Assembly: GCF_003018255.1 (NCBI RefSeq)
Contig: NZ_CP027440.1
Source: Escherichia coli
GTDB lineage: Bacteria; Pseudomonadota; Gammaproteobacteria; Enterobacterales; Enterobacteriaceae
Direction: 5' to 3' (one strand)
Length of the DNA: 64,000 nt
Both the position numbers and the translations under genes were made by a program. The notes under the pieces were generated by a model. It did not search any database. It was not told the DNA's origin and was given only the letters and a program-made list of their open reading frames with translations. Positions within the stretch are counted from its first letter, which is position 1. Each line of letters starts with the position of its first letter. Shown here piece after piece: positions 49,187 through 64,000 of the stretch.

Positions 49187-50101
49187 CTATACCGTTTCCA
49201 TCGCCGCATTTTCATTCACTTGCTGTCGATACACCTGCGGCGTAACCTGATAAGTCTGACGGAAAACTTTGCAAAAATAACTGGTTTGCGAAAAACCTAA
49301 ATTACGCGCAATGCTGGCGATGCTCCAGTCACTATGGCACAGTAACTCACGAGCGCTGGCCATCCGTTGTTGGTTTACCCACGCATTAAACCCAATCCCA
49401 TGGTATTTCTTAAATAACTTGCTGAAATAATAAGGGCTTAGATAAACGTGCGAGGCGACATCTTCCAGACGCAAATCGTCTGATAAATGCGCATCAATAT
49501 AGCGTAAAGCTTTTTTCATTTTATTGTCGTGGGGACCAGGCGCACGAGTCTGGCGCACCGAATCTGACTGAAATTTGTTCTCTTTAATAACAACAAAATT
49601 GAGTTGTTTTTTGAGGCAATTTTCCACAATCAACTTCAACAAATCAGCAGAGGCCATAACTCTTGAGTAATCCATCTCTGGGACTTTGCGAAATTCATTA
49701 AGTAATTCGGGATCTGCCTGCCAGCAATCATCGACATTCAGAATATCGACCAAATCGACATCATCATTACGCAGACGAACTTGCCCGCACAATACAAAAC
49801 CAACTAAATGTCCGGCGATTACCAGTGGAATAGAGAAATCGGTTAATCCGGCATGACAGCGATAAATACAAGGCTGATCGGATTTAGAGGCTTCCAGGCC
49901 CCCACAACGATCGCTCATGCGACATCGAGTACTCAGCTGAGGGTGTTGCCGCATCATCTGACAAAATGGAGTGAAGTTAAACAGCTCGGAAATTTCATCG
50001 CCGTGAATATTGACCACGACAACCGCAAGGCTGGTCGCCTGCGCAAAATCCTGCGCGATTTTATTAATGAGTTCTGAATTAAGTGTCGCCGCAGAAATCA
50101 T
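49187..50101 (-). CDS. pocR: AraC-family regulator of the pdu/cob regulon
   Basis: 304 aa; C-terminal AraC HTH. Confidence 0.9.
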   Translation of the reverse strand: MISAATLNSELINKIAQDFAQATSLAVVVVNIHGDEISELFNFTPFCQMMRQHPQLSTRCRMSDRCGGLEASKSDQPCIYRCHAGLTDFSIPLVIAGHLVGFVLCGQVRLRNDDVDLVDILNVDDCWQADPELLNEFRKVPEMDYSRVMASADLLKLIVENCLKKQLNFVVIKENKFQSDSVRQTRAPGPHDNKMKKALRYIDAHLSDDLRLEDVASHVYLSPYYFSKLFKKYHGIGFNAWVNQQRMASARELLCHSDWSIASIARNLGFSQTSYFCKVFRQTYQVTPQVYRQQVNENAAMETV

Positions 50102-50303
50102 GATAAAACCTCCCAGTTAATTTATTGTTATAGCAAAACAATTGTTTTACATTTAATCTTCACATCATCCTTGATGATTTACTGACGAGAAGCACAAAGG
50201 ACAATAACAAAAGCCTCCGTGAAGCGGGAGACTTTTTAATAAGTTCGGAAAGCAGATCACAAACAGTAAAAAAATAAACGTTTATAACTGCCAGATTATT
50301 TCG

Positions 50304-51113
50304 TTATTCGCTGATTTCTTTAGGCGTTACACTATTGACAGGTAAATTCTTTGCAATGAGATAGCGATAAATCGCCGCACCAACACATGCCCCAATGATC
50401 GGTGCAATAATGGGTACAATGAAATAAGGAATATTGCGTCCACCAGTCATCGCAATTTCCCCCCAACCCGCAAACCAGGTGAAAATTTTAGGTCCAAAAT
50501 CACGCGCTGGATTCATGGCAAAACCGGTTAATGGTCCGGTAGAAGCACCAATAACAGCAACCAGAATACCAATAAGTAAAGGCGCAAGCGGTCCTTTGGG
50601 TACGCCATTACCGTCATCGGTCAACGCCATAATCAACCCCATTAACATGGACGTTATGACCACTTCGACCAACGCAGCTTGCCATACATTAATCGCCGCT
50701 GCCGGATAAGTACTGAAGATACTGGCGAGTTGTAAACTTTCTGCGCTACCACGCACCATATTGTGAGCAGATTCAAAATCGGTAAATAAACTGCTGTAGA
50801 GAGAATATGCCAGAACCGCACCACCAAAGGCACCCGCTAATTGCGCCACACAAAATGGCAGCACTTTACGGGCTGGGAAAGAGGCAAACAGCCACAGAGC
50901 AATGGTAACTGCCGGGTTGAGATGAGCGCCGGAAATACCTGCCGTAAGGTAAACAGCAAGCGAAATCCCTAACCCCCAAATGATACAAATTTCCCACAGT
51001 CCCAGACTTGCCCCGGCAAGTTTCAGGGCGCACAAACAACCAATGCCAAAAAAGAGGAACAGTCCGGTGCCTAAAAACTCGGCAACGCATTGCGCCTTGA
51101 GTGAATCATTCAT
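50304..51113 (-). CDS. pduF: Propanediol diffusion facilitator (MIP/aquaporin family)
   Basis: Start MNDSLKAQ; NPA motifs (HLNPAVT, MNPARD). Confidence 0.9.
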   Translation of the reverse strand: MNDSLKAQCVAEFLGTGLFLFFGIGCLCALKLAGASLGLWEICIIWGLGISLAVYLTAGISGAHLNPAVTIALWLFASFPARKVLPFCVAQLAGAFGGAVLAYSLYSSLFTDFESAHNMVRGSAESLQLASIFSTYPAAAINVWQAALVEVVITSMLMGLIMALTDDGNGVPKGPLAPLLIGILVAVIGASTGPLTGFAMNPARDFGPKIFTWFAGWGEIAMTGGRNIPYFIVPIIAPIIGACVGAAIYRYLIAKNLPVNSVTPKEISE

Positions 51114-51623
51114 AGTGACACCTTCTTTACGGAGTTTTTCTTTATCAGCCAACTATGCGCTGATTGTTGTGTATACCGAGCGTAACTATAAAAAATTGCT
51201 CTGCAGAAAATATTGCCAACATGCATGACAGACTCGTGTAAAAATCGTGCTAACATAACAAATTATTGTCATTGCCGAATCATGCAACACAGCGTTAATC
51301 AGTGTTGAAAGTAATAATTACTGTCAAACTTTCACAATAAAAAATTGCCATCATGATATAATAAAATTGAAACAAATATCACAGTTCCTTCCTCGAACTA
51401 AACTCAACGAAATATTACTCGCGATTAAACTCACTAGCCAACGCAATTAATTCACATTGAAATATCCACAAAACAACTAATAAATTAACAACATATAGTT
51501 CATAAAAGCAATTTTATAATATTTGTTCTCTATTAATTTTCTCATTAGCCGATTAAGTCAGCCATTCTTTTTCCTCGCTTTTTTTTATAGTCATATCGTC
51601 AAAAAAATCCAGGCGAGGTCTTT

Positions 51624-62337: not shown

Positions 62338-62347
62338 AGAAACGGAA

Positions 62348-63460
62348 ATGAAAACTTTTTCACTGCAGACGCGTTTATACAGCGGAACGGGAAGTCTCAA
62401 CATACTGAACCGTTTCACGAATAGGCACATCTGGATTATTTGCGACGTCTTTCTGGCACACTCACCACTCATTGACACGTTGCATCAGGCGCTGCCCGAC
62501 AGTAATCGTCTCAGTATTTTTAGCGAAATAACGCCCGACCCAACTATCCAGACCGTGGTGAAAGGCATTGCGCAAATGCAGACTTTACGCCCGGATGTGG
62601 TTATCGGTTTTGGCGGCGGTTCTGCCCTGGACGCTGCAAAAGCGATTGTCTGGTTTGGTCGCCAGTGTGGCATTGAAATTGAAACCTGCGTAGCCATTCC
62701 TACCACCAGCGGTACCGGTTCCGAAGTGACCAGTGCTTGTGTCATCAGCGATCCTGAGAAAGGGATTAAATATCCCCTTTTCGATAATGCACTTTATCCG
62801 GATATCGCGATCCTTGATCCATCTTTGGTCGTCAGCGTGCCACCGGCGATAACGGCCAATACCGGGATGGATGTTTTAACCCATGCGCTTGAAGCTTATG
62901 TTTCTCCCCGCGCCAGCGACTTCACGGATGCACTGGTCGAAAAAGCCGTGCAAATTGTTTTTCAATACCTGCCCACTGCAGTGAAGAAAGGCGATTGTCT
63001 TTCCACCCGTGGCAAAATGCATAATGCATCGACGCTTGCAGGAATAGCCTTTAGCCAGGCCGGACTCGGTTTAAACCATGCACTTGCTCATCAACTCGGC
63101 GGACAGTTTCATCTGCCGCACGGCCTGGCGAATGCGCTCCTGCTCACGGCGGTAATCCGCTTTAATGCTGGCGATCCGCGCGCAGCCAAACGCTACGCCC
63201 GGCTGGCGAAAACGTGCCATTTATGCCCGGACAACGCCAATGACACCGCCAGCCTGAATGCACTTATTCAACATATTGAACAGCTTAAAACAACCTGTAC
63301 GCTGCCAACACTTGCCAATGCGCTGAAAGAAAAAAAAGCAGAATGGTCAATACGCATACCAGATATGGTTCAGGCAGCGCTGGCGGATGCAACGTTGCGT
63401 ACCAACCCGCGTGCGGCTGATGCCTCCGCGATTGCAGAACTGCTCGAGGAGTTGTTATGA
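62348..63460 (+). CDS. pduQ: 1-propanol dehydrogenase (iron-containing ADH)
   Basis: 370 aa with Fe-ADH signature. Confidence 0.9.
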   Translation: MKTFSLQTRLYSGTGSLNILNRFTNRHIWIICDVFLAHSPLIDTLHQALPDSNRLSIFSEITPDPTIQTVVKGIAQMQTLRPDVVIGFGGGSALDAAKAIVWFGRQCGIEIETCVAIPTTSGTGSEVTSACVISDPEKGIKYPLFDNALYPDIAILDPSLVVSVPPAITANTGMDVLTHALEAYVSPRASDFTDALVEKAVQIVFQYLPTAVKKGDCLSTRGKMHNASTLAGIAFSQAGLGLNHALAHQLGGQFHLPHGLANALLLTAVIRFNAGDPRAAKRYARLAKTCHLCPDNANDTASLNALIQHIEQLKTTCTLPTLANALKEKKAEWSIRIPDMVQAALADATLRTNPRAADASAIAELLEELL

Positions 63461-64000
63461 ACGTCGAGTTAACCTCCTGCGATGACCAGACCATCCGCGA
63501 GCGAGTACAAGCAGCAGGTGTCGTGGGTGCTGGCGGCGCAGGTTTTCCAACCCATATTAAGCTACAAGCGCGTGTTGACACGTTCCTGGTGAATGCGGCG
63601 GAATGCGAACCAATGTTGAAAGTGGATCAACAGTTAATGGTGCAGCAAGCCAGCCGCCTGCTTCGCGGTGTTCACTATGCTATGAAAGCCACCGGGGCCA
63701 GTAGCGGAATCATCGCGCTGAAAGAAAAATATCAACGGGCAATAAACGCACTCACACCCCTATTACCACCGGATATCCGCCTGCATATTTTGCCCGATGT
63801 TTACCCCGCAGGAGACGAAGTGCTGACCATCTGGATGGCAACTGGTCGCCGCGTCCCACCCGCGGCATTACCCGTTAGCGTCGGTGTGGTGGTCAATAAT
63901 GTTCAAACCGTACTTAATATTGCCAGAGCCGTCGAGCAACAGTATCCAGTGACGCGCCGCACACTCACTATTAATGGTGCAGTGGCGAAACCAATAACGG
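63457..64000 (+). CDS. pduS: Cobalamin reductase, partial; runs off window end
   Basis: ATG at 63457 overlaps the pduQ stop; N-terminal GAGGAGFPTH nucleotide-binding motif. Confidence 0.85.
   Translation, partial: MNVELTSCDDQTIRERVQAAGVVGAGGAGFPTHIKLQARVDTFLVNAAECEPMLKVDQQLMVQQASRLLRGVHYAMKATGASSGIIALKEKYQRAINALTPLLPPDIRLHILPDVYPAGDEVLTIWMATGRRVPPAALPVSVGVVVNNVQTVLNIARAVEQQYPVTRRTLTINGAVAKPIT

Follow-up and report, generated by a model that had tools for sequence, protein, structure and literature searches.

Fermentation of fucose and rhamnose yields 1,2-propanediol, which enteric bacteria can use by means of the pdu operon. Where this operon is found in Escherichia coli, the question arises whether it was gained as a foreign island or belongs to an ancestral locus that other strains have deleted. 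This question was addressed for the pdu locus at positions 49187–64000 of a window of 64,000 nucleotides (the whole stretch of DNA analyzed) from E. coli contig NZ_CP027440.1, where the view of the source contig ends inside pduS at position 64000. An earlier note on this DNA had described a complete-looking microcompartment island next to cobUST and had assigned the strain to a pdu-positive lineage. The region is very probably the Escherichia orthologue of the Salmonella pdu locus, in a reduced, ancestral form that has been retained here and deleted elsewhere. That E. coli can carry a pdu operon is already known, and one more strain with it adds nothing new.

The locus occupies the same chromosomal slot as its Salmonella counterpart, to the left as well as to the right. 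In Salmonella enterica serovar Typhimurium LT2, which carries pocR, pduF, and pduABCDEGHJKLMNOPQSTUVWX with adjoining cbi and cob genes, the gene order from pocR to pduS, the divergent pduF-pocR/pduA layout, and the position between cob and tmaR-yeeA-sbmC-dacD are all as found here, and PduM, PduN, PduO, PduP, and PduQ have identical lengths. The two forms differ at their ends. On the left, Salmonella (within the 10 kb fetched) continues from pduF and pocR through a cobalamin riboswitch into cbiA,B,C,D,E,T,F,G,H,J,K,L, whereas here an open reading frame (ORF) of 44 codons and a CbiG-like ORF of 145 codons stand in place of cbiA-P. On the right, the Salmonella order is pduV-pduW-pduX-tmaR-yeeA-sbmC-dacD, whereas in E. 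coli 2014C-3338 pduS-pduT-pduU-pduV is followed after 99 nt by tmaR (yeeX) on the opposite strand and then by yeeA, sbmC, and dacD. E. albertii has the same right end as E. coli (pduV-tmaR-yeeA-sbmC-dacD), with a distance of about 100–120 nt between pduV and tmaR in E. albertii and the closest E. coli, and E. fergusonii, which keeps pduW, is intermediate (pduV-pduW-tmaR).

Since the window stops in pduS, relatives were examined for the genes from pduT to pduX that the earlier note had proposed to look for downstream. The colinear E. coli locus L001, the closest one, has pduT, pduU, and pduV beyond the corresponding point; pduW (propionate kinase) and pduX (L-threonine kinase) are absent from it and from the E. 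albertii locus. With operons that stop at pduV in the closest relatives and with the cbi genes gone, the description of the locus as complete does not hold by the Salmonella standard. PduW and PduX are cytosolic and lie outside the compartment in Salmonella (PMC7181861), and their absence is no argument against a working compartment.

The reduced layout (pduA onwards, divergent pduF and pocR, riboswitch, 44-codon ORF, 144/145-codon ORF, cobU, cobS, cobT, and ldtA) is common to E. albertii, E. marmotae, and Escherichia sp. E4736; in E. albertii, only cobS of cobUST is called (cobU and cobT uncalled, L005 10436–10957). Identity of PocR drops with phylogenetic distance, from 96% in E. albertii and E. 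marmotae to 88–90% in E. fergusonii, Citrobacter, and Salmonella and 76–78% in Yersinia and Hafnia, which supports an ancestral locus. Between E. coli and Salmonella, the Pdu proteins are 54–91% identical and the flanking proteins YeeA, SbmC, and TmaR are 79, 74, and 96% identical, respectively; ~77% nucleotide identity has been reported for the two pdu loci (PMC9997745). E. fergusonii shares the gene order, the riboswitch, and a relic of two ORFs (49 and 156 codons) after pocR and has no cobUST. A separate history was considered for its pdu genes, which encode proteins as far from those of E. coli as Salmonella's are, and was rejected because the flanking YeeA and SbmC are equally distant, so that the region has diverged as a whole. 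Most simply, E. coli, E. albertii, and E. marmotae inherited the locus, already reduced, from their common ancestor, and ~88% of complete E. coli genomes later lost it.

Traces of the locus were found in strains that no longer carry the operon. Counts were made across 5426 complete E. coli genomes, 648 of which (12%) hold the pdu stretch, always on the chromosome. Sequence of both locus borders is retained by ~99% of the genomes, K-12 included: 5397 match the DNA just beyond cobU, which contains the 3′ end of the CbiG-like relic, and 5417 match the stretch formed by the pduV 3′ end, the spacer, and tmaR. K-12 loci confirmed the earlier statement that this strain is without the operon; next to cobU they carry 144 nt of the relic, with IS5 as its border, and next to tmaR 183 nt from the 3′ end of pduV, where the CP4-44 prophage remnant forms the border. 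In STEC1588 and N2208, the deletions are clean and end elsewhere, so that the relic or the cobU-side spacer directly abuts a pduV fragment, and O157 strains show yet another left endpoint. The differing endpoints point to several independent deletions, and because pdu-negative strains still have pieces from inside the locus at either border, their state is one of loss rather than of original absence. No publication whose title or abstract treats the cbi relic or the pdu deletion scars was found, and the papers listed for yoeF and pduV merely made use of pduV. One 374-residue E. coli protein (P0051) joins PocR and CobU domains, which suggests another deletion, fusing pocR to cobU.

These scars bear on the alternative that pdu is a horizontally acquired genomic island gained by this lineage, an explanation that we regard as highly improbable. 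It would account for the limited carriage among complete E. coli genomes, and it draws on gain and loss patterns within canine sequence type 372 (ST372) and on islands predicted on both sides of the locus (PMC9997745), on three tRNA genes 4.5–9 kb to the left, and on the few E. coli with a second, foreign pdu set. However, both borders are without an integrase, tRNA, or insertion sequence, cobU and tmaR flanking the locus directly (L001; no search was made for direct repeats there), and the GC content of 48–57% per gene, or ~50–54% in sliding windows, is close to surrounding values. The slot shared with Salmonella, the reduced layout shared with three other Escherichia species, and the internal fragments kept by pdu-negative strains also stand against a gain. 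Further, the pdu stretch and its left flank have the same nearest relatives. Annotated E. coli chromosomes match the 15 kb over its whole length, with no indel and at 98.5–98.9% identity, and the 24-kb left flank is 98.1–98.7% identical to largely the same genomes.

With regard to the elements just named, the three tRNA genes score identically and lie left of cobT, interspersed among yeeO, cbl, nac, and ldtA; in colinear E. coli they are annotated as tRNA-Asn. The stretch formed by the tRNA genes, yeeO, cbl, nac, and ldtA was called a predicted island in the ST372 paper (PMC9997745). The divergent, apparently foreign set is represented by the E. coli proteins P0121 and P0194 (PocR 81% and PduV 73% identical) and is probably what appears as the single record at 60–80% identity in the distribution search.

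Taken together, the data argue against import of a foreign island, and the pdu-positive lineage of the earlier note, insofar as the term implies gain, is better described as one that retained an ancestral locus. Three points count against this conclusion. The ST372 study took the patchy pdu pattern as repeated acquisition (PMC9997745); it is possible that an ancestral allele was re-introduced by homologous recombination between E. coli strains; and the nearest complete genomes are merely 98.1–98.9% identical to the source strain across pdu and core flank, so that its lineage is poorly represented among complete genomes.

The gene content of the retained locus is as the earlier note had listed it. 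The ORF list and a coordinate check placed pocR and pduF on the minus strand and 16 genes, pduABCDEGHJKLMNOPQ and a partial pduS, on the plus strand, and NCBIfam and Pfam matches agreed with these assignments. All 17 complete genes are open with zero internal stops, as is the visible part of pduS, whose full orthologue in L001 has 447 residues, the Fe-S and RnfC-like parts falling beyond the window. The junctions are tight or overlapping, as had been claimed; from pduA to pduS, the successive spacings are −4, 18, 9, 14, 9, −11, 19, 23, 2, −4, 3, 11, −4, 10, and −4 nt (5 overlaps; range −11 to +23 nt), and a purine-rich, Shine-Dalgarno-like stretch lies directly 5′ of most pdu starts. Family matches recognized the signature diol dehydratase PduCDE and its reactivase PduGH, the shell genes, and the aldehyde core PduP/L/Q, with PduC matching Klebsiella diol dehydratase 1DIO over its full length (all 554 residues, 1219 bits). 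The shell genes comprise the bacterial microcompartment (BMC) types BMC-H (PduA, PduJ, and PduK) and BMC-T (PduB, identified by an equivalog model, and PduT, which lies past the window) and the pentamer PduN, and they were recognized through PF00936 and PF03319 matches. PduF, PduP, PduL, and PduQ are annotated as such in L001.

Several finer features of the encoded proteins were also noted. PduA has the residues Lys26 and Ser40, the internal Met38 codon that starts PduB′ is present in pduB, and the C-terminal tail of PduK is Cys-rich (CNLCLDPACQRQKGEPRSLC). On reading the sequences, PduD, PduP, PduL, PduM, and PduB were seen to carry N-terminal extensions with an alternating hydrophobic/hydrophilic pattern; these resemble signal sequences and are predicted to be encapsulation helices. 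All these features are familiar from Salmonella, where their roles have been described (PMC12108088).

The operon is probably functional in this strain, judging from the sequence. The ratio of nonsynonymous to synonymous substitution rates (dN/dS) between Escherichia species is 0.00–0.13 for pduA, pduD, and pduE, 0.12–0.36 for pduH, and 0.03–0.08 for pocR and pduF. Other pdu-positive E. coli (2014C-3338, adherent-invasive E. coli (AIEC) such as CUMT8, and canine ST372) have the same gene-for-gene annotation, cobU-side relic, and riboswitch with no structural differences, and each protein differs by 0–6 amino acids from that of 2014C-3338. In CUMT8, a pduC deletion mutant showed no growth on 1,2-propanediol (PMC9220930). 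The earlier suggestion of a functional operon is supported by the 17 intact genes, by the dN/dS of the genes sampled, and by a pduC that is needed in CUMT8; for this strain the support does not extend to pduS-V, which the window cuts off.

The same observations bear on the alternative that the locus is nonfunctional here, a decaying remnant heading to deletion, which we consider unlikely. Decay would fit the deletion of the locus in most E. coli and the loss already of pduW, pduX, and all cbi genes. It would also fit the state of the locus in related species: pduC is split in E. marmotae (L008 4315–5968), pduG is uncalled or split in Escherichia sp. E4736 (L009 about 1270–3100; L010 1259–3099), and E. 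albertii lacks cobU and cobT calls. These broken genes, and a window that stops inside pduS with pduS-T-U-V of this strain out of view, weigh against a working locus. Against decay stand the open genes, the low dN/dS values, and the conservation of the regulatory RNA and promoter blocks, and the proteins are only a few residues away from those of E. coli loci of the type shown to support growth on propanediol.

Conservation extends to the noncoding parts of the locus. The AT-rich pduF/pduA control region holds blocks that are invariant in four Escherichia species; a promoter scan of the region gave only weak σ70-like matches, rarer than in shuffled sequence, and was uninformative. The cobalamin riboswitch is nearly invariant in the same number of species, including the expression platform up to the ATG, and Salmonella, E. 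fergusonii, and E. albertii have it in the corresponding position; it is the leader of the former cob operon. The STnc230-like element in the pocR-pduF spacer overlaps a terminator-like hairpin, and these three relatives also have an STnc230 match at the equivalent site. A literature search for STnc230 found no publication.

The earlier description of the locus as next to cobUST is correct as to neighborhood, but ~1 kb intervenes between pocR and cobU, made up of the riboswitch, the 44-codon ORF, the 145-codon ORF, and a 132-nt spacer. No cbi genes were found between riboswitch and cobU, where only these two ORFs lie. The 145-codon ORF has 46% identity to Salmonella CbiG residues 1–119 and matched the NCBIfam CbiG model at positions 1–125 (E 1e-18, far under the cut-off); Pfam returned zero matches, and the homologue search found relatives confined to Escherichia/Shigella. 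Of the first 15 residues of the 44-codon ORF, 7 are identical to Salmonella CbiA. For the part after these ~15 codons, comparison with the C terminus of Salmonella CbiF gave a match of only 5 residues and thus no assignable origin. An AlphaFold2 model of the 145-residue relic (alignment of 11 sequences) was of moderate confidence, with a pLDDT of 74.6 and a pTM of 0.69, and Foldseek returned nothing from the PDB at E ≤ 0.001, so the relic is without structural assignment.

The two relic ORFs look maintained. E. coli shares the 44-codon length and the ATGA overlap with the second ORF with E. albertii, E. marmotae, and Escherichia sp. E4736 (four species in all), and the second ORF has 144/145 codons across the four and is open in five species. 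Its dN/dS of 0.27–0.44 is above that of neighboring genes and is <1 in 10 of 10 species pairs (p 1e-5 to 4e-3); in simulations of neutral substitution, all four lineages stayed open in 0.1–0.8% of runs. These substitution patterns suggest purifying selection on the CbiG-like ORF. It is conceivable, although we would not favor it, that the pair is a maintained unit and not two dead pseudogenes, either encoding a domesticated small CbiG-N protein for corrinoid salvage or acting as a translated relay; the near-invariance of the riboswitch and its expression platform also speaks for such a unit. In the latter case, translation of the relic ORFs could keep downstream genes such as cobUST under the control of PocR and the B12 riboswitch. 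The relay idea is weakened by E. fergusonii, which has a relic pair yet lost cobUST.

The cobU, cobS, and cobT genes are late nucleotide-loop assembly genes that permit salvage of cobinamide. With neither cbiA-P nor pduX, de novo synthesis of B12 is impossible and corrinoids need to be scavenged; the loss of pduX fits the absence of this synthesis, which PduX serves.

By analogy with known pdu systems, we infer that the locus encodes, as an operon under PocR control, a bacterial microcompartment in which 1,2-propanediol is broken down with adenosyl-B12. Propanediol would be sensed by PocR, which would activate the divergent pdu and cob promoters, and the diol would enter through the diffusion facilitator PduF. 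The shell would be built from PduA, PduB/B′, PduJ, PduK, and PduN (and from PduT and PduU downstream), with cargo tied to it by PduM and the N-terminal helices of PduB, PduD, PduL, and PduP. Within the shell, PduCDE would convert propanediol to propionaldehyde, from which PduP would form propionyl-CoA and PduL propionyl-phosphate, whereas PduQ would form 1-propanol and recycle NAD+. PduGH, PduO, and PduS would repair and re-adenosylate the cofactor, and imported B12 or cobinamide would be completed by CobUST. With pduW missing, the final, ATP-yielding step would be left to a housekeeping acetate/propionate kinase such as AckA or TdcD.

The features of the locus and its surroundings are collected in Table 1.

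Table 1. Features of the pdu locus and its left flank in the window (NCBIfam scores paired by a slash are bits/curated cut-off)
Feature	Position	Strand	Description
tRNA gene	40398–40470	−	
tRNA gene	42219–42291	+	
tRNA gene	44628–44700	+	
cobT	45756–46835	−	ORF intact; annotated cobT in L001
cobS	46847–47590	−	ORF intact; annotated cobS in L001
cobU	47587–48132	−	ORF intact; NCBIfam NF004469 246 bits; annotated cobU in L001
CbiG-like relic ORF	48265–48702	−	145 codons; homologous to CbiG residues 1–119
44-codon ORF	48699–48833	−	begins at old cbiA start codon; TGA overlaps ATG of CbiG-like ORF (ATGA)
cobalamin riboswitch	48921–49095	−	Rfam RF00174, 107.5 bits (gathering score 31.5), full length
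pocR	49187–50101	−	304 aa; AraC-family; NCBIfam equivalog NF047788 552/500; 88% identity to Salmonella PocR
STnc230-like element	50162–50245	+	Rfam RF02075, 76.3 bits (gathering score 50); pocR-pduF spacer, opposite strand to both genes
pduF	50304–51113	−	269 aa from ATG; MIP-family; TIGR00861 224 bits; 86% identity to Salmonella PduF
divergent pduF/pduA control region	51114–51623		510 nt, AT-rich
pduA	51624–51908	+	shell protein; 178 bits to Salmonella PduA structure 3NGK
pduB	51905–52717	+	shell protein; NF011944 473/173
pduC	starts 52736	+	B12-dependent diol dehydratase; NCBIfam 1074/788
pduD	starts 54410	+	diol dehydratase; NCBIfam 392/248
pduE	starts 55093; pduCDE block ends 55611	+	diol dehydratase; NCBIfam 357/282
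pduG	starts 55621	+	diol dehydratase reactivase; TIGR04491 956/400
pduH	starts 57443; pduGH block ends 57793	+	reactivase; Pfam PF02288 108 bits
pduJ	starts 57813	+	BMC-H shell protein; BMC-domain match; 80% identity to PduA
pduK	starts 58112; pduJK block ends 58534	+	BMC-H shell protein; BMC-domain match (Pfam)
pduL	starts 58537	+	phosphotransacylase; NF011652 255/209
pduM	starts 59166	+	core/structural protein; NF011957 247/179
pduN	starts 59661; pduLMN block ends 59936	+	pentameric vertex protein; PF03319 96 bits
pduO	starts 59948	+	335 aa; adenosyltransferase and HbpS-like domain (Pfam); 74% identity to Salmonella
pduP	starts 60952	+	461 aa; CoA-acylating propionaldehyde dehydrogenase; NF011927 716/403; 85% identity to Salmonella
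pduQ	starts 62348; pduOPQ block ends 63460	+	370 aa; Fe-ADH family, 1-propanol dehydrogenase; 81% identity to Salmonella
pduS	63457–64000	+	N-terminal 181 codons, to window end; PF01512 143 bits; 88% identity to Salmonella N terminus

In E. fergusonii, a second microcompartment cluster was seen just past ldtA, a few kb from pdu (L014 13100–20900), where cobUST is missing. It contains a glycyl-radical enzyme (1128 residues), a radical-SAM activase, a BMC shell protein, a PTAC protein, and an Fe-ADH.

In E. coli, pdu has been linked to adherent-invasive strains and to adaptation to host or diet (PMC9220930 and PMC9997745). Within the locus, the unit of riboswitch and relic ORFs ahead of cobUST is a small, testable oddity. 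Whether an E. coli strain has pdu is better understood as a matter of having kept or deleted an ancestral, B12-scavenging locus that was reduced from the outset, and this reading affects how association studies interpret a gain of pdu.

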